A stretch of DNA of 47,665 nt from an uncultured Muribaculaceae bacterium (GTDB lineage Bacteria; Bacillota_I; Bacilli_A; RF39; UBA660). The position numbers and the translations under genes were made by a program. This document shows positions 3,929 through 47,608 of the stretch, piece by piece; positions within the stretch are counted from its first letter, which is position 1; every line of letters starts with the position of its first letter. Location of the stretch: NCBI GenBank assembly GCA_964561805.1, contig CAZLQU010000002.1, positions 1 to 47,665 on the forward strand. The letters run 5' to 3'. Below the pieces are notes generated by a model. That model was not told the origin of the DNA. It was given only the letters and a program-made list of their open reading frames with translations, and ran no database searches.

Positions 3929-4478
3929 TTATAAAATATTTTTAATTGGATTATTTGTTCTATTTGTAACGACATTAATTGTCGTTGAAACATATGCATT
4001 ATTTGAAACCAATAGCAATGGCGCAAAGACATTAGATATATCTGATTGGGTAATCTACGTAAATGACACAGATATTACTGAAACAAGAACGATTACTTTA
4101 AATGATTTCACTTATGTAAATGGTTCACATACAAGAGCCAATCGTTTTGCACCGGGAAGTAGTGCATATTTTGAACTAGAAATCGATGCATCAGATGCAC
4201 AAGTATCAGTTGCTTATGATTTAGAGATTGATGATTCCCAAATAGCTGATTATCCAAATATTAATTTTACAATTACCGATACTGATACCAATACAGTAAT
4301 CAATGATACTGAATATAGTGGAACAATTCTTCTTAGTGATCAAAATAGAACAAAGACTTTGAGAATTAATTTAGTATGGACTGATAATTCATTATATGAT
4401 GAATCAGATACCAGTTTAATTGGCGAGACCTTGGCATTTACAATCAATGCCCATTTTGAACAATATACTGGAGAATAA
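3918..4478 (+). CDS. Short-class TasA/CalY-like secreted protein with SipW-cognate-type signal peptide (P1)
   Basis: GTG start overlaps the sipW1 stop by 11 nt. Signal region KIFLIGLFVLFVTTLIVVETYALFETN. C-terminal motif LVWTDNSLYDESDTSL shared with P2, P4 and P5. Confidence 0.7.
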   Translation: MKSSYKIFLIGLFVLFVTTLIVVETYALFETNSNGAKTLDISDWVIYVNDTDITETRTITLNDFTYVNGSHTRANRFAPGSSAYFELEIDASDAQVSVAYDLEIDDSQIADYPNINFTITDTDTNTVINDTEYSGTILLSDQNRTKTLRINLVWTDNSLYDESDTSLIGETLAFTINAHFEQYTGE

Positions 4479-4499
4479 AAAGAGGAAGTGAGGTGTGAT

Positions 4500-5369: not shown

Positions 5370-5378
5370 GTGAGGAGT

Positions 5379-5975
5379 ATGCGAAAGACCAAAAGAGCAT
5401 TTAAAAATGTAAATAGTCGTGATTTTAGATTATATTTGTTTTCATCAATTCTTTTGATTGTGACTTTAATTTCTTTTGGTAGACTAGAATTTACGCAAGC
5501 TAAATACGAAAGTGAAGTAGAGATTAGTGTAGAACCAACACTTGCTTTCTTTATTGTTGATGTTACAAATACTTCTGGGCAAATAAAATTGGATGGAATA
5601 ATACCTAGAGCTACGCCATACTTATTTACTTTTCAGGTATCTAATTTTACAACTACGAAACATGCTGATGTTGATTTAACATATTCGATTGAGATAATTA
5701 CAACGACGAATATGCCACTTAATTTTAAAATCTATAAGGGAAATGATATGAATACTGACCAAATTGATTCTGACTTTTCAACGACGGATGCTGATGGAAT
5801 GTACTATAGACATTTGGTAATCAATGATGTGTCAACGATGAATTATAGTCAAAATGTTACTGATACATATACTTTATCGGTGGAATTTCCAGTAAGTAGT
5901 GCGAGTAACCCCGATGCTTATGCCGGCATAATTGATTTGGTTGATGTCAAAATCAATGCTGAACAGGTTGTGTGA
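5379..5975 (+). CDS. Short-class TasA/CalY-like secreted protein (P2)
   Basis: Basic n-region, hydrophobic helix, then EFTQAKYES. C-terminal DTYTLSVEFP...DAYAG...INAEQV resembles P1, P4 and P5. ATG 5379 lies downstream of AGGTGAGGAG. Confidence 0.7.
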   Translation: MRKTKRAFKNVNSRDFRLYLFSSILLIVTLISFGRLEFTQAKYESEVEISVEPTLAFFIVDVTNTSGQIKLDGIIPRATPYLFTFQVSNFTTTKHADVDLTYSIEIITTTNMPLNFKIYKGNDMNTDQIDSDFSTTDADGMYYRHLVINDVSTMNYSQNVTDTYTLSVEFPVSSASNPDAYAGIIDLVDVKINAEQVV

Positions 5976-5978
5976 TGT

Positions 5979-6905
5979 ATGAAAAGAAGAATTAAATTGT
6001 CATATAAAAAACTTTTGCTTTTAGTACCAATTATAGCAATTATTATGATTGGAACGTATACATTAGCAAAATATGTTATTGAAGAATTTCATAGTTATTA
6101 TTTGCAATCAAAGCATTTCTATTTTACGAGTAATCGACTTAAAAAGAATTTAGCAACATATATGGTTAATAACTGGTCAGGTGTAGGATCTTTTGATATT
6201 TCATTTGATTTATCATCTGAGAAAAATAGTCTTGTTCATAGCGACTTTGATATTCCATATACAGTAACTGCTACATGTCCAAACGATGTAACATGTGTAT
6301 TTGATAAGCAATCTGGGACGGTATACGCTAATAGCCAGACACATTCTGATACGGTTACATTAACGGTAACACCATCACGTAATTATAATGAGAATGAACG
6401 TTTAGTCATATATATTGAAGCAAATAGTACTTCTCCTTATACGGAACAGTTAAAAGCTAATTTTGAGTATGTCGTTGGTAAACAAGGTGTTACGTATGAA
6501 GTAGAAGATGAAGCTAATAGACCATATATGTTACTTAAAATAACTAGTGCGGTTACATATTGTAAGGTAATTACAGCATTTAATAACTATCCAGTTAATT
6601 ATTTGCTTGATAATAGTATTTATCGTACGTTAACTGATACGGATAAAGCAAAATGTCAAGGCGAAGCAGTATCTGTTAGTTTTAATCCAAGTACGATTGT
6701 TTTGGATACGACTTCTAACATTGTTAATACGGCAACACTGGGGACAACGACACTTAATGGTGTTGCTTATATAAGTAGTTTGGATTTCTATATTGAACCG
6801 GTTAGTACAATGACAATTAAATTCTATAAGAATACACCGGCAAATAATTATAAATATCCAAACGATAACAACACTCCGTGTGTGGTAACAGTAACATTTC
6901 CTTAG
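5979..6905 (+). CDS. Secreted protein with SipW-cognate-type signal peptide, long variant (P3)
   Basis: KKLLLLVPIIAIIMIGTYTLAKYV signal region. Thr/Asn/Val-rich, beta-rich body. Lies 3 nt after P2. Confidence 0.65.
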   Translation: MKRRIKLSYKKLLLLVPIIAIIMIGTYTLAKYVIEEFHSYYLQSKHFYFTSNRLKKNLATYMVNNWSGVGSFDISFDLSSEKNSLVHSDFDIPYTVTATCPNDVTCVFDKQSGTVYANSQTHSDTVTLTVTPSRNYNENERLVIYIEANSTSPYTEQLKANFEYVVGKQGVTYEVEDEANRPYMLLKITSAVTYCKVITAFNNYPVNYLLDNSIYRTLTDTDKAKCQGEAVSVSFNPSTIVLDTTSNIVNTATLGTTTLNGVAYISSLDFYIEPVSTMTIKFYKNTPANNYKYPNDNNTPCVVTVTFP

Positions 6906-6917
6906 TAGGAGGTAAGT

Positions 6918-7895
6918 ATGAATTATAATATTATTGAAGAATATCTTAGTTTTAATCGTGAAAAATACTTAGAATTTTTTAAGATTTTACTTGGTAGTCG
7001 TTATCAAAAATATTTATGTGCACTATTTATAGATAAATATATTAGTGTTAGATATTTTAATGAAACTAATTATTTAACTGAGAAAGATTTTATTAAGAGA
7101 ATTAATAAAGAATTAGTTGATTTAACTGAAAAATTAGCAAATGATGATAATATTGAAGATATTAAAAATATCGTGGCTTTATTCGGCTACATAGTATATT
7201 TTGATGATATTTGTGTTGTTACCCAGGATATGGAACTAATTAATACTTTGGTAACTGATGATGTTATAAAGATAAGAAATAAAGAAGAATTAAAACAGTC
7301 AATTAAAGATTGGTATATCAGTTTAAAAAAAGGTAAAGAAAAGTTTAATAATACACTGATGACTAAAGATTTTAGCTTGCTTGAAGTTAGGTTATATCGT
7401 AAGTTATATAATTTGGAGTTAGAACACAACGTTAAGATATCAAATTTATATAGCGAATATGCAATTGATAAAGCTTATAATAGTGGAACAGTGAATGAAG
7501 ATAAATTATTTATTACTTATATTTTGGCATCAGATTTAGTTTTAAATAATGCAATTAATTTAGATTTTTCTAGATATTATATGGTTCCATTGGCTAATAC
7601 GTTATTTGAAAAAGAGAAGAAATTCACGAGACTTATTAATGTTATTAATAATGGCTTAGCTAAGAAATTTATATCAATTAGAATTACTTATAGTGATTAT
7701 AAAAAAAATAAAAATAAAATTAACGATTTGATTAGTGAAGGATATTCTTTTGGAATAGAACTCGATAGTAAATATACGGGGAATACGAGTGAACTTGTAT
7801 TGTTTCCATATATATTCGTGTATGAAGATACACCAGAATATGAGATGTTAATGCGCGAAAAAGATCTGTTAAAGTCGAAAATTATCAAATTATAA
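6918..7895 (+). CDS. Cytoplasmic protein of unknown function; the C-terminal half may be a degenerate EAL-like fold
   Basis: Strong RBS TAGGAGGT. No signal peptide or TM. Blocks LLEVRLY / YYMVPLANTLF / ISIRITYSDY / LISEGYSFGIELD / LVLFPYIFVYED occur in the same order as EAL-domain motifs, but with catalytic residues replaced. Confidence 0.7.
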   Translation: MNYNIIEEYLSFNREKYLEFFKILLGSRYQKYLCALFIDKYISVRYFNETNYLTEKDFIKRINKELVDLTEKLANDDNIEDIKNIVALFGYIVYFDDICVVTQDMELINTLVTDDVIKIRNKEELKQSIKDWYISLKKGKEKFNNTLMTKDFSLLEVRLYRKLYNLELEHNVKISNLYSEYAIDKAYNSGTVNEDKLFITYILASDLVLNNAINLDFSRYYMVPLANTLFEKEKKFTRLINVINNGLAKKFISIRITYSDYKKNKNKINDLISEGYSFGIELDSKYTGNTSELVLFPYIFVYEDTPEYEMLMREKDLLKSKIIKL

Positions 7896-7904
7896 GGAGG
7901 TACT

Positions 7905-9428
7905 ATGGATACTTTTTTAAGATTCTTGTATGAGTTTTTAGCTCAATTCTTTAATGGTATAAAATTTATTGCTTTGGGAATATTTAATGGCTTTAAAGCA
8001 ATTTTCAATGTGCCTGAATACATCAAAGTAATTAATGAATACAAAGATGATTTATCATTACCTGAATGGTTACTGGTAGGGCTTGCCATTCTTACTACGT
8101 TAATTGTTTTAGGTTTAATTGTCTTTGGTATATACTTCCTTATTAGAAAATATATAAGAGTAAGAAAAACTTTAGTCGATCAAGAATCATTACTTGAGGA
8201 AGTTGGAACACTTAATAATGAAGTAGCTAAATTAGTTCAAGAAAAACAAACAATTTTAGCAATGAAGGTTTCACAGCTTGGACTTAAACCGGGAGAATCA
8301 GCTACGGAAGATGCTAAAGAACCTGGGGATAATGTTGATCCTAATACAGAAATTAGATTTCCTAAGTTATATGATGTTGATCAGAAATTTAAAGATTATA
8401 AGATTCAGAATTATGGTAATTCATTTGAACTTCCAGAGTTTGTTGAATTATTCCGTAACTTTGCAGCTAGTCAATTAAAACTATATTATACGACTGATAT
8501 GATAAGATTGTTCGTATCGGCTTTGGCTAGTACAAAGTTAGTTATTTTACAAGGTATTTCTGGTACCGGTAAAACTTCCTTGGCATATGCTTGGGGAAAA
8601 TTCTTGAAACATGACTCATGTATTGCTTCAGTGCAGCCATCATGGCGTGATAGAACTGAGTTATTCGGATACTTCAACGAATTTACTAAACGTTTCAATG
8701 AGACTGAAGTATTAAAAGAGATGTATGTTGCAGGATATACAGATGATATATATACAGTAATCCTCGATGAAATGAACATCTCACGTGTTGAGTATTATTT
8801 TGCGGAAATGCTATCAATACTTGAGATGCCTAATAAAGATGAATGGATTGTTGAAATAGTACCAAGTGCATGGAAGAGTGACCCAGTACATTTAATGGAA
8901 GGTAAACTTAAAATACCACCAAATATGTGGTATATTGGAACAATCAATAACGATGACTCGACATTCATGGTAACCGATAAGGTATACGACCGTGATATGC
9001 AAATAGATATCAATGATAAAGGTCAAGTATTTGAGCCAATTGATACTCCGGCTCAAGATATAAACTTCTCTTATTTGGATAAGAAATTTCAAGAAGCAAT
9101 TAAGAATAATCCAATACATGAAGAGAATCTTAAGAAAATTGAAGAAATGGATGATTATGTTATTCAACACTTCAGAATTGCTTTTGGTAACCGTATCGTA
9201 GCACATATGCGTAAGTTTGTACCAGTGTTTGTAGCGTGCGGTGGCGATGAAATTAGAGGAATTGATTATTTCATTGCTCGTAAGATTTTAAGAAAATTTG
9301 AACAGTTAAAAATTGCATATATTAGAGATGAAATTGATGGCTTTGTCAAATTCTTGAATGATAATTTTGGTGAAGGTAAAATGGCAGAGTGCATTGAATA
9401 TTTATTAAGACTTAAAAAGATGGCGTAG
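7905..9428 (+). CDS. Membrane-anchored, coiled-coil-linked McrB-like AAA+ (AAA_5) NTPase
   Basis: TM WLLVGLAILTTLIVLGLIVFGIYFLI followed by RKYIRVRK, then a short heptad-like segment. Walker A LQGISGTGKTSLA (8553-8576). VQPSWRDRTELFGYFNEF. Walker B VILDEMNISRVEYYFAEMLSILE. IGTINNDDSTFMVTDKVYDRDMQIDI. Confidence 0.8.
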   Translation: MDTFLRFLYEFLAQFFNGIKFIALGIFNGFKAIFNVPEYIKVINEYKDDLSLPEWLLVGLAILTTLIVLGLIVFGIYFLIRKYIRVRKTLVDQESLLEEVGTLNNEVAKLVQEKQTILAMKVSQLGLKPGESATEDAKEPGDNVDPNTEIRFPKLYDVDQKFKDYKIQNYGNSFELPEFVELFRNFAASQLKLYYTTDMIRLFVSALASTKLVILQGISGTGKTSLAYAWGKFLKHDSCIASVQPSWRDRTELFGYFNEFTKRFNETEVLKEMYVAGYTDDIYTVILDEMNISRVEYYFAEMLSILEMPNKDEWIVEIVPSAWKSDPVHLMEGKLKIPPNMWYIGTINNDDSTFMVTDKVYDRDMQIDINDKGQVFEPIDTPAQDINFSYLDKKFQEAIKNNPIHEENLKKIEEMDDYVIQHFRIAFGNRIVAHMRKFVPVFVACGGDEIRGIDYFIARKILRKFEQLKIAYIRDEIDGFVKFLNDNFGEGKMAECIEYLLRLKKMA

Positions 9429-9437
9429 GTGATATAA

Positions 9438-10544
9438 ATGGGTAAACTTAAAGTCACGGAATTACTTGATACATTGGGTGAACGTGAACAAGATAAGTTT
9501 AACAATAATATTCGTTCTAGTTTGGTAGTCAATACTGATATTAACAGAGTTGATGCTGATTTTGAGTGGCTTGAGATTATGGAAGATACGATTAAGTATT
9601 TGGATAATATCTTGAGAAACCCCAATAGATTTATCGTCAACGAAGAGGAGATCGTTAAAGTTGAACTTGCTAGGAGAATAACTGTCGAGAGTATTAGGCA
9701 TTTATCAAAACATACCAATTATATTCAGAAAATTGAAGATAATGGGGATGTAAAACCATCTAAAATTTTAAATATTCAAAAAGATGAAAGTTATGATACT
9801 TATGAAAATAGGTTGATATATACATTGATTGAAAATATGCGTAACTTTGTGGAAATTAAAAAGAAAAGTTTGGTTTCAACATCTAGTATTAAAGATGTTA
9901 AGAAAGCTAAATATAATGCTAAAACGAGTATTGGCAAAGAGCAAGTATTTATTGAACTAAACTATACATCTAGTCTAGTTGATAAGAAGGAACCACAGGG
10001 TGAAAGACCGCTTGAAGAGCGTATTAAAAGGCTTGAAGATGATATTACGATGCTTAGCAATACAGATGTGTATAAGACTTTAAAGAAATTACATGTGGCA
10101 AGAGTAATTCCCCCAATAAAGAAAACTAACGTAATTTTAAAGAATACAAATTTCCAATATGCGATGAAATTATGGGATTTCTTGCAGAATCATGTTGCTG
10201 ATGATACGAAAGTATTTAAAAGTAATAAGAAATTTGAAGATAATGGCATATTAAAAGAATATATTAATAATACTTTCCTTTTGGATTATTTGGCAATGAA
10301 TACACTTAGTGAAAAAAGGCCAAAAGAAAAACAACGTGAGGTTGTCGAAGAACTTACAGATAATTTAATTCAGCGCATTGTGGAATTAAATGTCGATTTA
10401 CCACTTACTGAGTTGAAGGAAAAAATTGGCGATAAAATGGCGATTATTAAATATCGCAGAGAAGCTAGTTTAGCTGAGGTTCAGAATGCTTTTTCTGAAC
10501 GTATTAAGAGTTACTTAGAGAAAATTGAAAACTTAAAGTTGTGA
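9438..10544 (+). CDS. McrC N-terminal-domain-like (DUF2357-like) partner protein without a recognisable PD-(D/E)xK nuclease
   Basis: Starts 9 nt after the AAA+ gene. Block ILNIQKDESYDTYENRLIYTLIENM resembles the McrC-family x-D-x-x-E-N-R-h-h motif. The C-terminal half is helical and K/E-rich, and I see no D...(D/E)xK context. Confidence 0.55.
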   Translation: MGKLKVTELLDTLGEREQDKFNNNIRSSLVVNTDINRVDADFEWLEIMEDTIKYLDNILRNPNRFIVNEEEIVKVELARRITVESIRHLSKHTNYIQKIEDNGDVKPSKILNIQKDESYDTYENRLIYTLIENMRNFVEIKKKSLVSTSSIKDVKKAKYNAKTSIGKEQVFIELNYTSSLVDKKEPQGERPLEERIKRLEDDITMLSNTDVYKTLKKLHVARVIPPIKKTNVILKNTNFQYAMKLWDFLQNHVADDTKVFKSNKKFEDNGILKEYINNTFLLDYLAMNTLSEKRPKEKQREVVEELTDNLIQRIVELNVDLPLTELKEKIGDKMAIIKYRREASLAEVQNAFSERIKSYLEKIENLKL

Positions 10545-10552
10545 GGTGACAT

Positions 10553-11080
10553 ATGAAAACTTTATTTAGAATTATTAAAGGAATAATTACAGTCTTTTTG
10601 TGTGTTGTTTTACTACTCGTAATATTCCAAAAGTTTACAAAAAATAGAGTTGCTTTAGGAAACATATATATATTTCAAGTTGTTTCTGAAAGTATGATAC
10701 CTGAGTATAAAATTGGCGATATTATTGTCACTAAAAAAGCAAATCCTGTATCTTTAAAAGTTGGAGATGACGTTACATACGTTGCGTCTGCTGAAGGCAT
10801 TAATGGGATGACTATTACCCATAGAATTATCAGTAAAAGAGAAGCTGGTGGCAAGTATTATTTTGTGACTAAAGGTATTAATAATCCAATAGAGGATCCG
10901 GAAATATCAGAAGATATGATCTATGGTAAAGTAATATACCATACAATTCTATTTAGTTTTGTTGGTAGGTTAATGACCAATATTGTAATTTATTACATTT
11001 TATTTGTTAGTGTCGGAGTAGCTTTTTCATATGAGGTTGTTTCATCATTTTTCATAAAAGACAAAGACGAGGATGATTAG
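10553..11080 (+). CDS. sipW: SipW-like signal peptidase paralogue 3
   Basis: SESMIPEYKIGDIIVTKK serine box, ITHRIISK, TKGINNPIEDP, N- and C-terminal TMs, RBS GAGGTGA. Confidence 0.85.
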   Translation: MKTLFRIIKGIITVFLCVVLLLVIFQKFTKNRVALGNIYIFQVVSESMIPEYKIGDIIVTKKANPVSLKVGDDVTYVASAEGINGMTITHRIISKREAGGKYYFVTKGINNPIEDPEISEDMIYGKVIYHTILFSFVGRLMTNIVIYYILFVSVGVAFSYEVVSSFFIKDKDEDD

Positions 11081-11081
11081 T

Positions 11082-11717
11082 ATGTCCGATGATAAAAAGA
11101 AAAAAAGGCGCCATTTATTAAAACCATCAAGACTTGTATTCTTGATTGTTTTACTAGCGGCCAATACTTTTGCATGGTTTATTTATGCGACCAAGATCAA
11201 TACCGATGTTTCTGTCCATGTTAGGGCTTGGAATGTCGTTCTTGAAAGTGGCGAGAATGAATTATCAAACGATGTAGATATTGATATTGATAGTATTTAT
11301 CCAGGAATGGATGACTATGAATATGAGATAACGGCATATAATCATAGTGAAGTTAGCGCAAGTATGACTTATGAGATACTTAGCGTGAGAATTCTAAGTA
11401 CTTCCTATTATACGGCAGAAGAAAAGCAACGATTAGGATTAACCATTACTGGTGATGAGCCAACTTCAGCAGATTTAGAAGATATGCTTGAAAATGACTT
11501 CCCGTTTAGTATTACATTTGAAACCTCAAGCAATACGATAGCTCAAGGGAATGGTGAAGAAACATACACCTTAGCCGTTGTTTGGCCATATGAAAGCAAT
11601 GATGATGAAACAGATACCTTATGGGGTAGTAATGCTTATACATATAAACAGAGCAATCCTACAAGTCCTAGTATTGCTCTGAAAGTTAGAATTATAATTA
11701 CACAAAATCCAGACTAG
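11082..11717 (+). CDS. Short-class TasA/CalY-like secreted protein (P4)
   Basis: KKKKRRHLLKPSRLVFLIVLLAANTFAWFIYATK signal region. VVWPYESNDDETDTLWG C-terminal motif. GAGGA sits 8 nt before ATG 11082 (ORF-track start 11073 is less likely). Confidence 0.7.
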   Translation: MSDDKKKKRRHLLKPSRLVFLIVLLAANTFAWFIYATKINTDVSVHVRAWNVVLESGENELSNDVDIDIDSIYPGMDDYEYEITAYNHSEVSASMTYEILSVRILSTSYYTAEEKQRLGLTITGDEPTSADLEDMLENDFPFSITFETSSNTIAQGNGEETYTLAVVWPYESNDDETDTLWGSNAYTYKQSNPTSPSIALKVRIIITQNPD

Positions 11718-14513: not shown

Positions 14514-17500
14514 ATGGTTAAAATAAAAGCGTTCATAAAACAACATAAAAAACCAATATTAATGGCAGTATTTTTTATTGCTACGCTTTTAGTGTGCAGA
14601 TTTATTGATACTTTTAGTGAAACTGTTACAGATAGCGCCTGGGATGGGGTAGTTGCTAGGGATTTTACTAGTGGAACAGGTACACTTGAAAATCCATATG
14701 TAATATCTAATGCTTCAGAATATGCTTACTTTAAAGAATTGCTTGAAGGCGAAGATGCAAGCGCTTATATAGATAAGAATTATGTCATCGCTAATGGATT
14801 TAATTATGGTGAATATGAAATAAGTATTAACAATACCATTCCTTTTTCTGGGAATATTGATGGTAGAGGTAATTTAATTTATAATGCCAAAATTGTTAAT
14901 AATTTATTTAATGTAGTTGAAGAGGCAACAATTAAGAATATTAATTTTGATGAGATTGAGTACTCTTTAACTAGTGAAACAGGTGCATTGCTTGCTAATG
15001 AAATGTCCAATTCAGAAATTGAAATGGTAGTATTTAATAGTGATGTTACTATTTCAGATGAAGGAGATTATTCGTTTGGTGGATTTGTATATACATCTCA
15101 AAATAATAAATACAATAACATTATAATTAATTCAAATATTTTAAGTGAAGTTACGGATAGTTATAAGTTTGTTTCTGAATCAGCCAATGATGAAGGAAAT
15201 AACATTTTAATTAATAAAGACAATTATAGTAATAGTAAAGATGATATTGATATAGATATTGCTAATTTTAAAATTGTTGGTGACAATATTAGTTTAATTG
15301 ATATAGATAATCTTGAAGATTATGTTACCAATAATTATAAAATTGTGACTATTAATGATAAATTTGTCATTGAGAAAATCGAGACTGAAGAGATTGAACA
15401 AGATACCGATGATAATGACAAAAAAGATGATACTACTCCAGATAGAGCACCTATCAAAAGAAGTGCGGTAGCATCTGATACGATTACAGAACATGCTAGT
15501 GGGTCTGATGGTAATACTTTATATATTAATGACTTAACAGCTGATAAAAACTATTTAAAAGGATTAAATTATGCTGAAGTTAGAAGCACAAGTATTCCTA
15601 GTGGTGTTAGTACAGGGTATTATAATGATGATTATTTGGTTAAGGTAGAAATTATCTATGATGGAGCAGATATTAATAATTCTTCATTAGTGGGAGCTTT
15701 GTCCCCTATTAATAATGAAAACACTAATAAATTCGTTTATTTTAAGTATTATCCATTAGTACGAAATAGTAATGGTAGTTTAGCTACTAATAGTGATGGG
15801 GATAATTATATTAGAATAGAACTTATCGACAATCCATTTACTAAAAGACCTTATGTAAATAATGTTGAATATGGATTTAATGGTTGGGTATGTAATCAAA
15901 GTGTTGATACGACAGCTAATCTATGTGAAAATGCAACCTTTAGCTTTAAAAAAGATGATTATACAAGATATATGGATGTACCAGTTAATGGCGGTAGTCA
16001 GCTTATCATTCATTTGAATGCTACTTGGTATAGAGCTGATGTAGTAACTAGCTATAATGACATTTATGACTTTAATTCTATGTCAATGCAACCTACGTGG
16101 TATACGACTACTGAGACGGTTACTCATAGATATAATGCTTATTGGAAACAAAACTATACACAGATGGAATATGATCGCTCATATAACTATAATGCTGGTT
16201 ATTTGCCAGTAGGCATTTGGTATAGGACAAATAGAAACAGTGGGACATATAATTATGTATCACGGCCTAATTCGGTTAGAGCTGATAGATATTGGGGTAA
16301 TACTACACTATATGCATTTAACGCGAATACTACTGCTATTTCCGAGGGTACAAGATATACTGGTGGATCTGTTACTTTTGTTGCTAATTTTAACCCAACT
16401 GGAAGCAATACGGATACAACAATTAATAACTATAATACGACATATATGAATCTTGTTGAAGAAGCTAATGGAACATTTACAACTACTGAACAAGTTACAC
16501 ATTCAAATTCATATATTTCAACTGGGGCTAATACGGAGGGATACTACTACAAGGTAAGCAATCCTACTGCTAATATGATTTCAACTGGAGAATACTATAC
16601 GAATGATGGATCTGTTTGTACAAGTGCTAATGCTTGTACTACTGCTTATAAATTAATACAATATAACGATTCAGTAACTAATTCAAATGGTAATTCAATC
16701 TATTTAACTGAAAATGATAATGGCTATATGTTGGATGCTGATAAATACTATTATCTTGTTACTAGGGATATGAATATATATAGGCATACTAGTACAACTG
16801 GTGTAAGTTATACTAACTTAACTTATTACAATAGACCATTTACAGTGACGGGGGCAGCTGTTAATGGAACAACGGCCGCTGGTAGAATAAATATTACAAG
16901 CAATCAGTTAAGTCTTAAAAATGATTTAGTCATTGAAAATATTAGAATTGATGGACCAAATTATGATTTAACTGTAACTGGCCGAAATGGGTATGATAAT
17001 AAGCAAACTGGTGCTGATACAACTTCTGGTGCAATATATGCTAATTCACATAATTTAAAGATAGGTCGTAATGTTAGTAGTTATGATGGCACATCATATA
17101 TGGTTGTCCAAGGTATATATGGTGGTGCTAATAATGCTAGCCCATCAGGAACATTTAGAGTTATTATTGAAAGCGGTTACTACTATGCATACCATAGTGG
17201 AAGAATGAATGGTGGTACAACTACTTATACATTTAATGAAACAACTATTTTTGGTAATGATTATGATCGTATAAAGAATAGTAATCAAAAATTAAGATTT
17301 TTAATTGGCTTAGATGGTTATGCTGGAGGAGATAATTATGCCGGAAATGATTCTTTATTTGCTTCATATAATATAATTAAGAGTGGTTCATTTGGATATA
17401 ACTATGATGGCTCTGCGAATACTGATAATACAGCTGGTTTATACATTGGTGCACGATCTGATCTTTATATGAACTCATTGACAGGAGTTAAAATTGAAGG

Positions 17501-33290: not shown

Positions 33291-33320
33291 TTGATTTATA
33301 AAATTGATTTATGGTAAAAT
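33291..33320 (+). promoter_or_regulatory. Candidate sigma-A promoter of the effector cassette
   Basis: TTGATT, 18-nt spacer, TAAAAT (33315-33320). The leader shares 19/22 nt with the phosphorelay promoter/leader. Confidence 0.45.
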
Positions 33321-33351
33321 TTAGGTAGGAAAGTAGATGGGAGGATAGTAT

Positions 33352-34671
33352 ATGGCTGATTTTAATACTAATGATGATTTAACATGGTCTGATGAGTTTG
33401 ATACAACAAATATGCAAACTGTTGATTATAAACAATATTTTGAATCTAAAGGGTATATAGTTGAAGAAAAAACTACAGATTCAGGAACTGGATATATTAT
33501 AACTTCTGTTGGAACTAATGGTAAACCAGATGGCGGGGCAATTATTATTCCTCCGAATAGTCAAGAAACAAATACAGTTGCTTTTTTCGTTTGTGGGCAA
33601 GATGGCAAAGGTACTACAACATATGGAACAAGTACAAACGGACCACAATTAATAACTAAAGCTCAGGAAAATAATGAATGGCCACCATATACAGTGGTAA
33701 TTTCACCTAATGATTTATATGACACAAAAGGATGCAAATCTGATGGCTTAAATATTTTAAATGATGCTTATGGTGGGCTTAGAGCAAACGATGTACCTGT
33801 TGAAAATATTGGCGGATTAGGTTTTAGTAATGGGACATACGGATGTGTATGGACGGTCGATAAATTTTTGGAGCAGCATCCTGATGATGATTTGAATGCC
33901 AGAATATATTTAGCTGATCAATATAATGTTGGTGAGCATGTGTTTAAAGCTAAGCGCAATGGAACATATGATAGGACGGAGTTTAGTACATATGATGGTA
34001 ATGAACTCTCAACGCTTAAAGAAAAAGGTGTTGAAATAACGATGTCATATCGTGGCGAACAAGCTGGTGGAGTTCACAATGGTAGAAAAGACGTGCAATT
34101 AATGGATGCTGTTGGCATGTCAATGCTAGGATTTAATGTGCAATTAGCACAAAGAGGCGAAGGGACTCACCTTGAAAGTTTTCTAGATTTCTTTGATGGT
34201 GATTGGGGATATAATTATTTGGCTGGCGTAGAGGAAGAGACAGTTCATTCAGATAGTTATATGCAATTATTAAATTTATCAGATGAAGACTTTTATTTTC
34301 CCATTGATGAAAACATTGTTGGTTCAAATTCCATGTATGTATATAGTAAAATGAATGATATGTGTACTCAAATAAGGGACACGATTAGTTCAGCTAATAC
34401 TACTTTTGCTGCAGCTTCAGCACCAATCATAACAAGTATGCCTGAAGTATCAGCAAAAATTAATGAATGTTTAGGAATATATAATAATATGCTTGGTGTT
34501 CTAATGGAAAAACTGTATGATGAATCGAAAGTTGTTGTTAGTGTAGCAGAAACAATAGATGCGATGGAGGGTGAATTAACTACCCATGCTGAAGAGATTG
34601 AAGATGTTAATAATGAACCAATAAAAGAATTCGCCAAGGATGATACAAAATCCCAAACTGATAATGTATAA
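33352..34671 (+). CDS. Candidate T7SS-type effector with reverse architecture: N-terminal alpha/beta-hydrolase-like domain, C-terminal helical (LXG-like?) domain
   Basis: No Sec signal peptide. GLGFSNGTYG fits a G-x-S-x-G nucleophile elbow. The last ~120 aa are predicted helical (SKMNDMCTQIRDTISS...LGIYNNMLGVLMEKLYDES...). Confidence 0.5.
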   Translation: MADFNTNDDLTWSDEFDTTNMQTVDYKQYFESKGYIVEEKTTDSGTGYIITSVGTNGKPDGGAIIIPPNSQETNTVAFFVCGQDGKGTTTYGTSTNGPQLITKAQENNEWPPYTVVISPNDLYDTKGCKSDGLNILNDAYGGLRANDVPVENIGGLGFSNGTYGCVWTVDKFLEQHPDDDLNARIYLADQYNVGEHVFKAKRNGTYDRTEFSTYDGNELSTLKEKGVEITMSYRGEQAGGVHNGRKDVQLMDAVGMSMLGFNVQLAQRGEGTHLESFLDFFDGDWGYNYLAGVEEETVHSDSYMQLLNLSDEDFYFPIDENIVGSNSMYVYSKMNDMCTQIRDTISSANTTFAAASAPIITSMPEVSAKINECLGIYNNMLGVLMEKLYDESKVVVSVAETIDAMEGELTTHAEEIEDVNNEPIKEFAKDDTKSQTDNV

Positions 34672-34704
34672 GCAACTAAAGAATAATATTTTGAAGGTGA
34701 TAAA

Positions 34705-35307
34705 ATGGCATATAAAAGTGTAAATAAATTGGATGAATGTATTACCAATACAAAAAATGTTAAAGGTTCAATTGATGAATTTGAACCAGAAAAAACATTT
34801 AAAAGTAATGTTTCTGGTAGTCGTATGTGGAAGACTGTTATGAACAAACTTGATGATTTTGGAGCAACTACCAATAGTGCTACGAGTGTAAGCAATGTTT
34901 TAGGTGAAGCAGTAGAAAAAACTGTTAATGAAATTATTGCTTGTGTTGGTGAATACGATTATGAAAAACTGGATACGACAAAAATTGATGAATTAAAAGC
35001 TGAAAGAGATGCTATTAGTAATCGAATTAGTTATATTGAAACAAAAATTGGGAATACCAATACTATTACAGAATATGAAGAAGGCGGAGATGTGGAAATT
35101 AAGACATATCTTGGGATGCTTTCTGTGCTTAGAAAAGAATTGGCAACATCAAATACTTTAATTCAAAAACTTGAAGAGTTGAAAGCAGCACAGGAACAGG
35201 CAATAAAATTACTAGATGATGCTCTTGCTAGCCTTGAATCAGTAGATGGAGAAGTTGGTAGTTTACAACCAGGTAGACCAATAGCATTAATTTCAAGGAG
35301 ATGGTAA
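34705..35307 (+). CDS. 200-aa helical/coiled-coil protein, candidate effector-associated partner
   Basis: Helical composition. Co-directional and closely spaced within the cassette. Confidence 0.7.
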   Translation: MAYKSVNKLDECITNTKNVKGSIDEFEPEKTFKSNVSGSRMWKTVMNKLDDFGATTNSATSVSNVLGEAVEKTVNEIIACVGEYDYEKLDTTKIDELKAERDAISNRISYIETKIGNTNTITEYEEGGDVEIKTYLGMLSVLRKELATSNTLIQKLEELKAAQEQAIKLLDDALASLESVDGEVGSLQPGRPIALISRRW

Positions 35308-35311
35308 TATT

Positions 35312-35692
35312 ATGGATAATACTCATCAAAGTGAAACTACTAAAAAGGATGAATTAAAGAAAAAAATACAGGAGAATGATAGTAGTATAGCTAGATCAAA
35401 AGAAGCCATCAAAAAAATAAATGAGTTTGAAGGCGATTTAAGAGATTTAAACAAAGAATTTGATAAATATTTAGAATTATTAAATTCGGCAGTTAAGGGC
35501 CACAAAGTCAATGCAATGATTAATGAGTCGTCTTTTGAAAAAAATCATAGTTTAAATAAGACCCTAGTCGATTTAAATAAAAGAAGACAAATTATTACAG
35601 ATAAGTTAAAGAAAGATATGAATCATCGCGAAGAACTGTTAGATGAATATAATAAAGAATTAGAAAACGATAGTAAAAAAGATGACAATTAG
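35312..35692 (+). CDS. 126-aa Lys/Glu-rich coiled-coil protein, candidate Lap/Tla-like partner
   Basis: Starts 4 nt after the preceding gene. All-helical composition. Confidence 0.7.
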   Translation: MDNTHQSETTKKDELKKKIQENDSSIARSKEAIKKINEFEGDLRDLNKEFDKYLELLNSAVKGHKVNAMINESSFEKNHSLNKTLVDLNKRRQIITDKLKKDMNHREELLDEYNKELENDSKKDDN

Positions 35693-35750
35693 ATTTACAA
35701 TGATATCAAAATATGATATATTATAAGTAGATAAATTAGGAGGGAAGAGT

Positions 35751-36059
35751 ATGTCAGGTAGGTTTGTAGCACAACCAGATGTGTTGAGAGCAGAAGGTAA
35801 TTCAATTCTTGGAAAATCTGAAGAATTCGTTAAAAATGTTGATGAAATATATTCAACAATTAATGAAATGCTTCAGAGTAGTTATATGTCTCCAGCAGCA
35901 GCAGCTATTGCAAAAGATATAGAAACATATAAGGAAGACTTACAAAAAATGGCAAGAACAATCAACAACTATGGTAATTATTGTGTAAAATCTGCTAATA
36001 CTATCAATAGAAATGAAGAAAATATTATTGATAGTGTTAGTGGCGGAAGTATGATGTAA
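35751..36059 (+). CDS. WXG100-like small helical protein (Y-x-S in place of W-x-G)
   Basis: 102 aa. RBS AGGAGGGAAG. Central turn LQSSYMSPAAAAIAKDIE sits where WXG100 proteins carry W-x-G-x-A-A-x-x-F. Confidence 0.6.
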   Translation: MSGRFVAQPDVLRAEGNSILGKSEEFVKNVDEIYSTINEMLQSSYMSPAAAAIAKDIETYKEDLQKMARTINNYGNYCVKSANTINRNEENIIDSVSGGSMM

Positions 36060-36075
36060 TTATTGGAGGGATAAT

Positions 36076-36387
36076 ATGAATAATGCAGGAACAACTATTA
36101 CTTATGAAAGAGTAAGAGATGATGCTAATAAACTTAAAGAATGCGCAAGAATAATGAATGGCATTTTTGAAGACTTTGGTAGTTCAATGAATAGAGTTGG
36201 GGCTGAAGATGTTTATGCTGGTGATGCTAGTGAAACATTAGGACAAAAATTTAATACTTTGAAAACAAAATTTGATTCATATATTAGATTAGTTAATGAA
36301 TTCGCTGGTATGATTACTAGCGCTTCAGAACAAACTGAACAAACTGAACGTGAGTTAGCTGCTCAAGCTGATGAATTAGCTAGTTAA
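36076..36387 (+). CDS. WXG100-like small helical protein (Y-A-G in place of W-x-G)
   Basis: 103 aa. RBS TGGAGGGA. Central AEDVYAGDASETLGQKF. Helical flanks. A terminator follows. Confidence 0.6.
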   Translation: MNNAGTTITYERVRDDANKLKECARIMNGIFEDFGSSMNRVGAEDVYAGDASETLGQKFNTLKTKFDSYIRLVNEFAGMITSASEQTEQTERELAAQADELAS

Positions 36388-36389
36388 TT

Positions 36390-36418
36390 AAAAAAACAAT
36401 TATTTAATTGTTTTTTTT
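36390..36418 (+). terminator. Rho-independent terminator of the effector cassette
   Basis: acaatt-attt-aattgt stem within A-run and T-run flanks. Confidence 0.7.
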
Positions 36419-36457
36419 AATTTCATATGTTATTATATAGTGCTCGTAGGTGATACT

Positions 36458-37048
36458 ATGCAATATTTAACTGTTGGTACGCGTGAAATAACATCTGAAG
36501 CTTTTACTTGTGTCGAAGATACTGATATACGTAATATTAAGCCACGTGGTGGTATATGGTTAACTAGATATCAAGGGGAAAATTATAATGAATGGATTGA
36601 TTTTATTATTGACGATCCTGTTATTTTCTATTATAAAAGTAGGGATTATTCGCTTTGGGAGCAACCTTGTTCACTAGTAACATTGAAAGATGATGCTAAA
36701 ATATTTAATTTATGCCATAGGAATGATCTAGAATATTTGTTAAATAATTATCCAATTGATAAGTATAAGTTTTCATATAAGAAAATGAGTATGACATATG
36801 ATGGTATATATATTGATATGTATAGTTTGCTAAGAGAAGTAAAAGATGATGAGTTGCGTCAACGAATTTATAAATTTGGTGTTAATACATTAATATTATT
36901 TAATATAGAGTGTATTGATTATTATGAACCTGGGACCGTTTCAATTACACCATTTGATTATGAATATGGGGCATGTGAATTTCCTGAATATAAAATAAAT
37001 ATTAAAAAAGAAAAAAAGAAAGTTTTAAATAAAAAAACCGCAAATTAA
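36458..37048 (+). CDS. Hypothetical cytoplasmic protein (196 aa)
   Basis: RBS GTAGGTGA favours ATG 36458. I recognise no family. Confidence 0.65.
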   Translation: MQYLTVGTREITSEAFTCVEDTDIRNIKPRGGIWLTRYQGENYNEWIDFIIDDPVIFYYKSRDYSLWEQPCSLVTLKDDAKIFNLCHRNDLEYLLNNYPIDKYKFSYKKMSMTYDGIYIDMYSLLREVKDDELRQRIYKFGVNTLILFNIECIDYYEPGTVSITPFDYEYGACEFPEYKINIKKEKKKVLNKKTAN

Positions 37049-37060
37049 TTGCGGATTTTT
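37038..37060. terminator. Bidirectional hairpin between convergent genes
   Basis: ccgcaa-attaa-ttgcgg stem followed by a T-run; it overlaps the stop of the + strand gene. Confidence 0.6.
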
Positions 37061-40045: not shown

Positions 40046-40119
40046 TGGCAGGGGATGAGAGAATCGAACTCCCAACAGTGGTTTTGGAGACCATTATTAT
40101 ACCATTTAACTAATCCCCT
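40046..40119 (-). tRNA. tRNA-Trp: tRNA-Trp (anticodon CCA), CCA end encoded
   Basis: The reverse complement AGGGGAT-TA-GTTA..TAAT-A-ATGGT-CTCCAAA-ACCAC-TGTT-GGGAG-TTCGATT-CTCTC-ATCCCCT-G-CCA folds as a 74-nt cloverleaf. 7-bp acceptor stem, TTCGATT T-loop, anticodon loop CT-CCA-AA. Confidence 0.9.
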
Positions 40120-40197: not shown

Positions 40198-40935
40198 TTA
40201 AATATTTATAATTTCTTTTTTATTATTTGGATACTTTTTTAAGAAGTTTGTAATAATTGCTTTTACTTCTTCTTTTCTTTCTTTTGTAAAGCAATCATGA
40301 GTAACTTTATCAATATTAACTAAGATATTAGTTTTTGATTTAATGGTATTATATACGAGATTGGTTCCTTCAATAGGGACTACGGGATCTTTTAAACCAT
40401 GAATTGTTAATGTAGGACAAGTAATGTTATTTAAGTCTTTTTGATATTCACTTACTAATTTTGTAAATTCAAGCATAGTTGGAATTGGGGTTTTTTGAAT
40501 TCTCTCAATTACTTTTTCTTTATCTTCTTCTTTTAATAAGGAAGGTAATCTTTTTAGTGTTTCATTAATACCTTTAATATCTACCTTGGCATCTTTAAAA
40601 TTGAAATATCTAAAAGCTGGAGCTACCAAAACAAGTTTTTTCACTTCTCTGTAATTAGCTGCTAGATGGGCTGCAATTACACCACCCATACTGTGACCAA
40701 TAACATAAATCTCTTTATAATTGTGTTTTAATAAGAATTCAATTTGATTTTCAGCTGCTTTTATCCATTCAGAATGTTTGACATTCTTTACAATATGTTT
40801 TTCATGGCCAGGTAAGGTAAATGTGTAAACATCAAAATTTCTATAAGTTTGTAATTCATTGGGAAAACTATCATAGTCATATATACCACCAACGAAGCCA
40901 TGAATAAATAGAATTGCTTTTCTTCTAAAAAACAT
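40198..40935 (-). CDS. Alpha/beta hydrolase (carboxylesterase or lysophospholipase-like)
   Basis: ILFIHGF oxyanion region and GHSMGG nucleophile elbow. RBS AGGTGA favours the MFFRRK start. Confidence 0.85.
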   Translation of the reverse strand: MFFRRKAILFIHGFVGGIYDYDSFPNELQTYRNFDVYTFTLPGHEKHIVKNVKHSEWIKAAENQIEFLLKHNYKEIYVIGHSMGGVIAAHLAANYREVKKLVLVAPAFRYFNFKDAKVDIKGINETLKRLPSLLKEEDKEKVIERIQKTPIPTMLEFTKLVSEYQKDLNNITCPTLTIHGLKDPVVPIEGTNLVYNTIKSKTNILVNIDKVTHDCFTKERKEEVKAIITNFLKKYPNNKKEIINI

Positions 40936-41076
40936 AATTATCACCTAATTGAATTATAACACTATTGTCATATATTGTGTTTTTTTAATGAGTATTTTAC
41001 GTAAAAAAGTGTAAATAAATGGTTAATTAATTGTTTAAAATATTAATGTGTGTTAGACTTTAAGTAGGAGATTGAT

Positions 41077-45436: not shown

Positions 45437-47608
45437 ATGGCTAAAAGAAAAACTAAAAAAGATAAAGATAAATTTGAATATAGCAATGAGATAATGGGAG
45501 TAGTATTAATCTTGCTTTCAATTATTGGTATTTTAGGTTATGGAAGAGCAGGAAACTTTATTCGTAGTTTTACGGTTTTTCTTGTGGGAATTGCTTATTT
45601 TCCATTATTAATTGGTTTTTTAGTATTAGGGATATGTTTGATTGTGAAAAGAAAATCACCAAAGATGGTATCTCGCTCTTCAATTGGCTTATACTTAATT
45701 ATTATGGCTATTTTAACAATCCTTCATTTAGAATATGTTAAACAAGATGGTAGTACGAAGATGATTATTGAAACTTTTGATAATGTAATGGAAGCATTTA
45801 AATCAGCTGATTTTATTAAGAATTGTGGTGGTGGAATGACTGGTGCTGTTCTTGCTTATGCCTTTAATTGGGCATTTTCCACTGATGGTATTATGATTGT
45901 TGTAATTACATTGATTGTTTTGGGTGTAATTTTACTATTTAATACTTCAATTCTAAATGCCTTTAAGAAAATTAGGTTACCAAGGGTTGAAGAAGATGAT
46001 GATGAAGAGGAAGAGGAAGAAAGCAAAGCAGAAGAAGTACCTGATAATAGAATTGTAATATCTTCCATTGATGAACTTACAAATAAGAAAGAAGAAGTTG
46101 TAGATAACGATATTCCAATAAAGAAGGAATCAGATGCCGAAATGCATGAGGAAGAAGTCGTTAAAAATGATAATTATAAATTGCCATCAATTAATTTATT
46201 AGATACGGTAAAGAATGTCAATAGTAAAGAAAATGAACAAATAGCTAAAGAGAATATTCAAAAATTAGAGGAAGTATTAAAAGTATTTGAGGTTTCTGGT
46301 AAGATTGTGCAAGTTAATATAGGACCAACAGTTACTCAATATGAACTTGATTTAAAAGCTGGTACTAAGGTTAATAAATTACTTGGTATCCAAAGAGAAA
46401 TCGCTTTGGCAATGGCTGCTAAGGATGTCAGAATCCAAGCACCAATACCAGGGAAAAATACAATTGGTATTGAACTTCCTAATAGGGTAAATGCTTCAGT
46501 ATCAATTAAGGAAGTACTTCAAAATATGCCAAGTGTCAACGAAAAGACATTGCTTGCAGTTGGTCTTGGTAAAGATATTATGGGTAGAGTTAAATGGTGT
46601 GAGATTAATGCAACACCTCACTTACTTGTAGCAGGTTCTACTGGTAGTGGTAAATCAGTTTGTATTAACTGTATTATTACTTCACTTTTAATGAGAACAA
46701 AACCAGATCAAGTTAAATTGGTTTTGGTTGACCCTAAAAAAGTTGAATTTACAATGTATGAAGGTGTACCACATTTACTTAGCCCAGTTGTTACTGATCC
46801 AAAGAAAGCATCAATTGCCTTAAAGAATATTGTTTCTGAGATGGAAAGACGTTATGAGCTACTAGAACGCACTAGAAATAAAAATATTGTTGGTTATAAT
46901 CAATTTTGTGAAACTCATCCAGAGTATGAGAAATTACCATATATTGTAGTTATTATTGATGAGTTGGCTGATTTGATGCTTGTGGCTGCAAAAGAGGTTG
47001 AAGACTCAATTATGCGTATTACACAGATGGCACGTGCAGCTGGTATTCATTTGATTGTTGCTACGCAAAGACCATCAACAGATATTATCACGGGTGTTGT
47101 TAAAGCAAATATTCCATCAAGAATTAGTTTTGCAGTATCAAGTCAGATCGATTCAAGAACAATTCTTGATATGGGGGGTGCTGAAAAACTACTTGGTAAG
47201 GGTGATATGTTATTCTTACCAATGGGTGAATCAATACCTATGAGAGTACAGGGAGCATTTGTTTCTGAAAAAGAAATTGAAAAACTAGTTAAATACACTA
47301 TTAGTCAGCAAAAAGCAAATTATGATAACACGCTTACAGTTGATAAAAGTAGTGATAGCAGTTCAGTTAGTGGGGATGATTATGCATCAAGTGATGATTA
47401 TGATGATCCAATTTATAATGAAGTTGTTGATTTTGCGGTATCAGCGGGTAAGATTAGTGCAAGTTTAATTCAAAGAAAGTTTAGACTTGGATACAATCGT
47501 GCTGCTAGAATTGTCGATTTACTTGAAGAACGTGGCATTATTGGGCCACCAAATGGTTCTAAACCAAGAGAAGTACTTGTTAAATTAGAAAGTCATAATG
47601 AGGAATAG
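45437..47608 (+). CDS. ftsK: DNA translocase FtsK/SpoIIIE
   Basis: Four N-terminal TMs and an acidic linker. Single motor with GSTGSGKS and IIDELAD. C-terminal gamma winged-helix LIQRKFRLGYNRAARIVDLLEERGII. Confidence 0.95.
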   Translation: MAKRKTKKDKDKFEYSNEIMGVVLILLSIIGILGYGRAGNFIRSFTVFLVGIAYFPLLIGFLVLGICLIVKRKSPKMVSRSSIGLYLIIMAILTILHLEYVKQDGSTKMIIETFDNVMEAFKSADFIKNCGGGMTGAVLAYAFNWAFSTDGIMIVVITLIVLGVILLFNTSILNAFKKIRLPRVEEDDDEEEEEESKAEEVPDNRIVISSIDELTNKKEEVVDNDIPIKKESDAEMHEEEVVKNDNYKLPSINLLDTVKNVNSKENEQIAKENIQKLEEVLKVFEVSGKIVQVNIGPTVTQYELDLKAGTKVNKLLGIQREIALAMAAKDVRIQAPIPGKNTIGIELPNRVNASVSIKEVLQNMPSVNEKTLLAVGLGKDIMGRVKWCEINATPHLLVAGSTGSGKSVCINCIITSLLMRTKPDQVKLVLVDPKKVEFTMYEGVPHLLSPVVTDPKKASIALKNIVSEMERRYELLERTRNKNIVGYNQFCETHPEYEKLPYIVVIIDELADLMLVAAKEVEDSIMRITQMARAAGIHLIVATQRPSTDIITGVVKANIPSRISFAVSSQIDSRTILDMGGAEKLLGKGDMLFLPMGESIPMRVQGAFVSEKEIEKLVKYTISQQKANYDNTLTVDKSSDSSSVSGDDYASSDDYDDPIYNEVVDFAVSAGKISASLIQRKFRLGYNRAARIVDLLEERGIIGPPNGSKPREVLVKLESHNEE

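Follow-up and report, generated by a model that had tools for sequence, protein, structure and literature searches.

A candidate type VII secretion substrate module with a predicted hydrolase cargo and a separate LXG-like protein in uncultured rumen and gut Bacillota

Whether a signal-less enzyme and the small helical proteins encoded behind it form a secretion cassette, and on which of these proteins the targeting element lies, is the question raised by a locus on contig CAZLQU010000002.1 of GenBank assembly GCA_964561805.1, derived from an uncultured bacterium of the Bacillota (i.e. RF39; UBA660). The whole 47,665-nt stretch analysed is referred to as the window. Five genes (A to E) at positions 33352-36387 had been interpreted from the letters alone (hereafter the sequence-only reading) as an effector cassette of a type VII secretion system (T7SS) of the T7SSb style, in which an N-terminal hydrolase would be followed by its own LXG-like helical domain and by small helical partners. 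All five open reading frames (ORFs) were found on the + strand at these positions with intergenic gaps of 4-58 nt, and a sixth gene, F, was found to extend the unit to 33352-37048. The reading favoured here, which is given a probability of about 60%, is that A-F would be a T7SS substrate module with a split LXG-like carrier acting in trans, i.e. a new and unannotated form of cargo packaging.

The predicted hydrolase and its helical tail

Gene A (33352-34671) encodes the putative cargo, a protein of 439 aa with a hydrophilic N-terminus for which no signal peptide and no transmembrane (TM) segment were predicted, in agreement with the sequence-only reading. Single-sequence scans of A, B, C and F against Pfam and NCBIfam gave nothing meaningful, and A matched neither Lipase_3 nor any other Pfam family at E<=1. 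A phmmer search of A against the PDB returned noise only, and a close A alignment found no match in representative genomes. Relatives were recovered as 4 clusters among 5.8 billion by a word-indexed search and as 90 proteins when 1.84 billion representatives were searched exhaustively with a profile, with no consistent Pfam annotation among the 90. A mobile-element origin of A was rejected, there being no phage or plasmid relatives.

The functional assignment of A was examined using alignments of 16 and 34 diverged family members (about 20-45% identity) and an AlphaFold2 model. Only G45, G82, S159 and H273 were invariant; G82 (nt 33595-33597) lies in a PGxGG-type loop and S159 (nt 33826-33828) in a G-F-S-N-G motif at residues 157-161, with H273 encoded at nt 34168-34170. 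The model built from the 34-sequence alignment had a mean predicted local distance difference test (pLDDT) score of 78, with a core above 90, and consisted of an alpha/beta domain (residues 1 to ~300; 33352-34250) followed by helices; it superseded a first model from 5 sequences (pLDDT 54) that had the same fold class. In the later model, S159 sits where strand 152-158 passes into helix 159-175, as is classical for a nucleophile elbow, and H273 follows the last core strand (262-268). Candidates for the catalytic acid were D189, after strand 182-188, and D279, which is kept in most members. Foldseek comparison of the model with the PDB yielded 300 matches at E<=1e-3, and the top 50 listed were all alpha/beta-hydrolases (probability 1.0). 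The best matches (E=7e-8 to 7e-6, with a target template-modelling score, TMt, of up to 0.55) were with the esterase D/S-formylglutathione-hydrolase family (3i6y, 3fcx, 3ls2 and 4b6g), pneumococcal EstA (2uz0), esterases of the hormone-sensitive lipase (HSL) type (7cih), CesB and feruloyl and acetyl-xylan esterases; cinnamoyl esterases were also among the top matches. Among these 50, no match was described as a class-3 lipase. On the basis of the conserved Ser and His, the elbow geometry and the fold matches, A is predicted to be a serine carboxylesterase/lipase-like alpha/beta-hydrolase, with its modelled domain closest to esterase D and HSL-type carboxylesterases. The N-terminal hydrolase that the sequence-only reading had deduced from G-F-S-N-G was borne out by these data, and its label of lipase or esterase was narrowed to the esterase D/HSL side, away from Lipase_3 and class-3 lipases.

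The tail of A consists in the model of two long helices (325-352 and 364-419) that form a hairpin of ~95 aa; the corresponding segment (residues ~318-419; 34303-34608) is a putative trafficking or docking module. A hidden Markov model (HMM) of the hairpin matched about 100 proteins at positions ~300-420, essentially all A-family members being included, and also matched stand-alone proteins of 94-126 aa. The family consensus is SSxxxYVxxxMNxIRxxIKxS...(GIPGC)...INxxxNxYY...ETxxxxSxAQxxxDMDxDL, in which GIPGC forms the turn in most members and is missing in the A protein of the window. The hairpin profile had no significant match in the PDB or Pfam, whether LXG, WXG100 or other, and hhalign comparison with the families of D and E detected no significant relation (probability of 14% versus E). 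As none of these searches gave a significant relation, the hairpin is not called WXG100- or LXG-like by homology and is, as judged from its profile, a new hairpin family of the size of Lap, WXG100 and PE proteins and not an LXG-like domain. The order proposed by the sequence-only reading (i.e. cargo N-terminal and helical region C-terminal, the reverse of LXG toxins) was therefore upheld, as was the helical nature of the tail, whilst its LXG-like character was not.

A-family members also differ in what follows the hairpin. In one type of C-terminal extension, a low-complexity linker leads to a TM helix that is conserved (KKKG..ILPVVAGLSVAAAAGIGAKAYID), and the acidic tail behind it terminates in ...YTAR..EELADMQ; the other comprises a linker and a domain of ~75 aa (..REDGSK/FEDGH...KY.YEF...) with no Pfam match. 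These two recurrent extensions were recorded at loci L032, L037, L039, L041, L042, L047 and L048; L006, L025, L027, L030, L031, L036, L043 and L046. At one further locus (L003, 3697-4934) two ORFs of 353 and 58 aa take the place of a single A-family gene, which is likely to reflect a frameshift or pseudogene, or else an assembly error; the copies in L004 and L005, unlike this one, are intact and encode 412 aa.

Partner proteins, recurrence and gene context

Gene B (34705-35307) encodes a helical protein of 200 aa, and a homologue of ~190-220 aa was present directly 3' of the A-type gene in nearly all loci where the contig continues. An alignment of 26 family members contained the motif L-x-G-x-x-W-D-x-V-R-x-K-L, with G38 invariant. 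Among 177,635 distinct PDB sequences, the top match to the B profile was 8gmh_B, the LXG domain of TelA, at E=6.3e-4 with 7 sequences in the profile and E=6.4e-5 with 26; the match spanned 166 columns with the L-x-G residues aligned, and the next PDB match had E=0.012. The 8GMH structure is the export-targeting complex TelA(LXG)-LapA3-LapA4 of S. intermedius. B ends after ~200 aa without a toxin domain, and some homologues carry long Thr-rich tails. Because of the L-x-G motif and the TelA LXG domain as top PDB match, B is read as a distant, cargo-less LXG-like protein, so that at the level of sequence profiles the LXG-like element of the cassette is the separate protein B and not the tail of A.

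The three genes that follow encode further small proteins. C (35312-35692; 126 aa) is a small, charged helical protein that occurs after B in many loci and is a Lap-like candidate for a third bundle member. E (36076-36387; 103 aa) is an EsxA-like WXG100 protein: it scored 27.7 bits (E=3.3e-6) against Pfam WXG100, where the cutoff is 27.3, and 2.3e-11 against NCBIfam ESAT6_2; its homologues carry precomputed PF06013 annotation, and the top five PDB matches of the family profile were all firmicute EsxA-type proteins (3zbh, 2vrz, 2vs0, 3gvm and 3o9o). In E the W-x-G motif is replaced by Y-A-G, with G49 invariant. D (35751-36059; 102 aa) has Y-x-S-P at this position and scored 21.1 bits (E=3.8e-4) against Pfam WXG100, below the cutoff; it was always paired with E across loci and is regarded as a divergent WXG100-like partner of E. 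A CBS-domain hemolysin segment, the top PDB match to the D profile, was judged spurious. The presence among the partners of two WXG100-like proteins of ~100 aa, as put forward in the sequence-only reading, is consistent with these scores, E reaching the Pfam cutoff and D falling short of it.

Recurrence of the cassette was examined in genome and metagenome scans, which added 26 loci, with genes annotated by HMM. About 25 distinct loci, with identities of 20-50%, had the order A, B, (C), (D-E), and all family records were rumen or gut metagenome assemblies or metagenome-assembled genomes (MAGs) labelled Clostridia, Erysipelotrichaceae or Bacillales. In a sister species (L001, L016-L019) the identical six-gene cassette lies between the same flanking genes. 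As the cassette is syntenic in this species and recurs in many divergent loci, A-E are genuine genes and not chance ORFs. Identities between the syntenic copies were 78-96% for the flanks, 77-78% for D and E and 58% for F, as compared to 44% for A, 41% for C and 25-28% for B. Of about 20 distinct loci, 11 have the D-E pair immediately 3' of A-B(-C), and the order is identical in each of them. A-B(-C) occurs without a nearby D-E in about half of the loci (i.e. L003-L008, L023, L030, L038, L039, L043 and L046), so that a local WXG100 pair is no strict requirement of the module. In L025, which has two A-type genes, the first is not directly followed by a B.

Across the 12 loci with a full module, pairwise identities of the hairpin and B were correlated (r=0.85, Mantel p=2e-4), as were those of D and E (r=0.81), whilst identities of the hairpin or B were uncorrelated with those of E (r=0.10-0.15; hairpin-E, r=0.10). 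This covariation within and not between the pairs indicates that {A,B} is inherited or exchanged as one unit and {D,E} as another, each independently of the other. A simpler description, in which A, B and C are 'fast' and D and E 'slow', was refined by these data. The pattern fits cognate cargo/carrier modules placed before a lineage-conserved WXG100 pair, as far as sequence comparison can tell. One locus (L020, 1-8255) contains three effector modules in tandem, each with its own B; in two of these a different N-terminal domain (G-Y-S-S-T motif, no Pfam match) is joined to the same hairpin type, and one member, of 752 aa, contains a linker rich in Pro and Glu as well as a TM helix at its C-terminus.

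In the window, a promoter-like site (TTGATT-18-TAAAAT, with TG; 33291-33320, + strand) was identified 5' of A as a pattern match in a consensus scan, and a strong ribosome-binding site (GGGAGGA) lies at ~33340-33346. No terminator-like site was detected between E and F, and the sole one in the unit is a hairpin resembling a bidirectional intrinsic terminator (CCGCAAATTAATTGCGG, flanked by T-runs on either strand) at 37038-37054. Given the promoter-like site and ribosome-binding site before A and the single terminator-like hairpin, A-F is best read from sequence as one operon. Gene F (36440-37048) encodes 196-202 aa depending on the start codon (GTG at 36440 or ATG at 36458) and a predicted cytoplasmic protein with no TM segment or signal peptide. 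It was found only in the clade of the window and the L001 clade (58% identity), and had no relative in Pfam, NCBIfam or the PDB, a WW-like PDB segment being taken as a chance match. In the clade of the window, F is a candidate for an immunity or accessory function.

The surroundings of the cassette are ordinary chromosomal genes (i.e. PGA_cap, PFK, amidase-LysM, two-component genes, AsnB and FtsK) in a window with a GC content of about 30%. The FtsK/SpoIIIE protein at 45437-47608 was considered as an EssC candidate and rejected; it carries FtsK alpha and gamma domains and is therefore a DNA translocase. A + strand ORF of 2869 aa (14514-23123) has an N-terminal TM or signal-like segment and no Pfam match and is possibly a large surface protein; local GC content reaches 0.38-0.41 in this region (18-20 kb). 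It is followed by two ORFs without Pfam match (23251-24780, 509 aa; 24854-25225, 123 aa) that share 81% and 96% identity with the sister species. Three S24/S26 signal-peptidase-like genes (3395-3928, 4488-5369 and 10553-11080, + strand) lie among several ORFs without Pfam match (3395-11080), and an Abi_2 (abortive-infection-like) protein and a DUF2357 protein (1149-2084 and 9438-10544) may be defence-related. A tRNA-Trp gene (CCA; 40046-40119, - strand) adjoins a Hydrolase_4/Abhydrolase_1 protein (40198-40944, - strand) that is unrelated to A, i.e. routine chromosomal content. Elsewhere, genes similar to these signal-peptidase-like ones (SipW-like) occur just 3' of the A-B-C cassette in L030 (13398-17620) and L043 (12920-17729), along with genes for small secreted, TasA/camelysin-like proteins that bear an 'AYFTD' motif; they may be a recurrent neighbour of the cassette.

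Link to type VII secretion and competing explanations

A clear genomic link to a T7SS was provided by one MAG (CAMOMI01). Its contig L025 starts inside a multi-domain FtsK/SpoIIIE ATPase, which matches positions 615-1294 of TIGR03928, the model for firmicute EssC, at 2e-133. Behind this EssC fragment come two bona fide WXG100 genes and, 2-3 kb downstream, two A-family genes. A second contig of the same MAG (L023) carries an A-B pair. Behind the effector array of L020 there is an FHA-domain ORF, truncated where the contig ends; FHA domains start the EssC proteins of T7SSb-type systems. A T7SS core remote from the locus is usual for LXG and Tsl loci. The T7SS link thus consists of one EssC-adjacent locus together with the homologies of B and E, and points to secretion at the level of sequence. 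The cassette type proposed by the sequence-only reading is partly supported by the likeness of E to EsxA, of B to the TelA LXG domain and by this locus, with an altered anatomy in which the LXG-like part lies in B.

These observations can be combined in a model in which the A-F operon would be a substrate module, of a family previously undescribed, for a T7SSb-like secretion system. The ~95-aa hairpin of A would dock onto B, together with C, to form a helical shaft like that of LXG-Lap-Lap or PE-PPE complexes that presents the N-terminal enzyme. The enzyme would thus ride on a 'Lap/PE-like' subunit with the LXG-like subunit B working in trans. D and E would form a WXG100 heterodimer, evolutionarily uncoupled from A/B, that may be a co-substrate of, or a lineage-specific adaptor to, an EssC ATPase whose gene lies at another site in the genome. 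Export of A would then be T7SS-dependent through an EssC-type ATPase, and A may have a toxic or other extracellular role. It is quite possible, as an extension of this model, that the cassette represents a third class of 'reverse' T7SS substrate with an architecture of its own, in which the cargo is borne on a Lap/PE-sized hairpin, the LXG-like carrier is separate and free of cargo, and exchangeable {cargo-hairpin + LXG-like} modules precede a lineage-conserved WXG100 pair. Such a system would be widespread in uncultured rumen and gut Bacillota and wholly unannotated.

Several observations weigh against this model. Apart from the missing LXG or WXG100 match of the hairpin, the similarity of B to LXG is modest (26 bits), and the Pfam LXG model gave weak matches in 3 of the 26 B members, the best of which (E=0.013) was below the cutoff. 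C had no PDB or Pfam relative in sequence and profile searches and no likeness to Lap, WXG100 or LXG proteins, and the D profile did not match EsxA in the PDB. The bundling of A, B and C is deduced from gene order and covariation; covariation alone is no proof of contact and also arises from simple co-inheritance. D189 is kept in most members and replaced by Asn or Glu in some, so that the catalytic acid is not fixed. EssC adjacency was observed in 1 of about 25 loci, with no EssC-like gene in the other flanks, and the L020 FHA match was only generically FHA. Consistent with the statement of the sequence-only reading that EssC, EsaA and EssB are absent, no T7SS core family was found by Pfam in the window ORFs of at least 100 aa (42 of 43 scanned, the 214-aa ORF at 11073-11717 being excluded), and none was seen in the short contexts P0021, P0030 and P0035. 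No gene family that could confer immunity was conserved downstream across the cassette loci. Many A-family members carry a C-terminal TM anchor or extra small domain, which fits a surface-retained enzyme better than a toxin that diffuses away.

The last point leads to the explanation that A is exported by a T7SS without being a toxin, i.e. that it serves the producing cell as an esterase, secreted or on the surface, for example in envelope remodelling or in the degradation of plant or lipid esters in the rumen. The linkers of the extended paralogues are Pro/Thr/Glu-rich and, with the single TM helix or small domain at the C-terminus, suggest surface-retained enzymes; the Thr-rich tails of some B proteins are typical of wall-spanning surface proteins, and the feruloyl, cinnamoyl and acetyl-xylan esterases and esterase D among the top fold matches, the rumen or gut origin of all samples and the lack of a conserved immunity gene agree with such a role. 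Against it, the fast divergence and modularity of A, B and C and the L020 array with its second cargo type are reminiscent of polymorphic toxin loci, Sec signals are the norm for fibre-degrading esterases of the rumen, and the A protein of the window has no anchor; this explanation is considered rather unlikely. The divergence of A, B and C at a syntenic site and the multi-effector arrays would also speak for an antibacterial toxin. As neither a conserved immunity gene nor an immunity-gene array was found, the toxin role that the sequence-only reading had assumed for A is unproven.

A more specific form of the toxin explanation is that A is a reverse lipase of the Tsl type, with an LXG-like C-terminus of its own, Lap-like partners B-E, antibacterial phospholipase activity and F as the immunity protein. 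Such an arrangement has precedents in TslA and TslM, and is favoured by the shared domain order, the adjacent WXG100-like partners, the hypervariability of A, B and C at a syntenic site, as expected of polymorphic toxins, and the co-transcription of F. It is distinctly unlikely, however, given that the hairpin is ~95 aa long and without LXG/WXG similarity, as compared to ~150 aa in TslM (aa 384-536), that the LXG-like signal sits in B and that the fold is closest to esterase D/HSL enzymes, with no class-3 lipase in the top 50 and no Lipase_3 match. No DUF576/DUF1433-like gene or immunity array accompanies the cassette (neither Pfam family was matched in the window), and F, restricted to one clade, has no TM segment or signal peptide. 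It could alternatively be supposed that nothing is secreted, A-B-C being a cytoplasmic or membrane-associated hydrolase complex on coiled-coil partners and D-E being unrelated or linked only through regulation. The window ORFs scanned contain no T7SS core gene, the hairpin and C have no T7SS-family similarity, A-B lacks D-E in about half of the loci, {A,B} and {D,E} evolve independently, and an enzyme that has a C-terminal TM anchor but no N-terminal signal would by default stay in the cytoplasm. This supposition is nevertheless improbable: D-E follows A-B(-C) directly and in constant order in over half of some 20 very divergent loci, the best relatives of B and E are a genuine T7SS LXG domain and EsxA proteins, and one locus adjoins EssC. 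To our knowledge, proteins of the WXG100/LXG superfamily (EsxAB clan) are T7SS-specific. The split-carrier substrate module is retained as the preferred reading.

If this reading is correct, a targeting bundle can carry its cargo on a Lap/PE-like subunit with the LXG-like subunit in trans. The hairpin-plus-B module would be portable, with at least a second type of N-terminal domain on it in L020, and T7SS effector biology would reach uncultured rumen Clostridia and Erysipelotrichia-like lineages. The five protein families without a Pfam model (i.e. the N-terminal domain of A, the hairpin, B, C and D) would help the annotation of metagenomes and the prediction of T7SS substrates.

Comparison with known systems

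Both experimentally characterised reverse T7SS families are staphylococcal-type phospholipases with their own LXG-like C-terminus, i.e. the reverse T7SSb lipase toxins Tsl1 (TslA/B/C) and Tsl2 (TslM-P) of Staphylococcus and other Bacillota (PMC10730906, PMC13560087). The 2026 TslM paper regards these as the only two reverse families known and asks whether other arrangements exist (PMC13560087), and a 2024 survey described further reverse lipases at T7SSe/g loci (PMC11217815). The suggestion of the sequence-only reading that the cassette may be a second example of the reverse arrangement is thus superseded, since Tsl2/TslM already is the second. The cassette resembles Tsl1 and Tsl2 in combining a signal-less N-terminal alpha/beta-hydrolase that has a Ser nucleophile with a C-terminal helical region, in the adjacent genes for small helical or WXG100-like partners and in a locus that is usually remote from the T7SS core. 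It differs in that its tail is a ~95-aa hairpin, as compared to the LXG-like helical domain of about 150 aa (aa 384-536) of TslM (PMC13560087), and in having a separate LXG-like protein of 200 aa downstream. The cassette has four partner proteins (B, C, D and E), as compared to two for TslA and one for TslM. Going by published descriptions, the esterase D/HSL-like hydrolase of the cassette is set apart from the Tsl lipase fold, reported to be that of the Yarrowia lipase 3O0D or Lip2-like (PMC10730906, PMC13560087). The cassette also has no immunity array of DUF576 lipoproteins or DUF1433 membrane proteins, its A protein matches no Pfam or NCBIfam model, and its hosts are uncultured rumen Bacillota. 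Defining features of Tsl systems (i.e. a cargo-borne LXG-like domain, a Tsl-type lipase domain and immunity arrays) are thus missing from the cassette, in a comparison that covers Tsl1 and Tsl2 as described.

The D/E pair is comparable to EsxA-EsxB pairs, both being formed by helical proteins of ~100 aa from adjacent genes, with E at the WXG100 cutoff and nearest to firmicute EsxA. In contrast to EsxA-EsxB, D and E are encoded with an effector module and not with essC, and have W-x-G replaced. They gave no cross-matches with the WXG100 pair beside EssC in L025 and are distinct proteins.

With the LXG-Lap systems, as represented by TelA(LXG)-LapA3-LapA4 (8GMH; PMC10801868), the cassette shares an LXG-like protein of similar length with the L-x-G aligned (E=6.4e-5), co-encoded small helical partners and, in the model proposed here, a heterotrimeric helical shaft as the likely export signal. 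A structural parallel between LXG and PE-PPE proteins has been noted in that work (PMC10801868). Unlike LXG toxins, B lacks a toxin domain and does not reach the Pfam LXG model, and the cargo is on the other subunit, where it precedes a Lap-sized hairpin. In the cassette the partner genes come after the cargo gene, whereas in LXG systems they are located upstream.

Among mycobacterial PE/PPE pairs, the PE-lipase LipY is exported by ESX-5 and has its PE domain at the N-terminus. The cassette has the opposite domain order and no detected sequence similarity to this pair, belongs to another phylum and T7SS subtype and has no EspG-like chaperone. By analogy, however, a two-helix hairpin of ~100 aa fused to an HSL-type hydrolase, a helical partner of ~200 aa and the lack of a Sec signal would make the PE/PPE arrangement of LipY a possible architectural counterpart of A and B.

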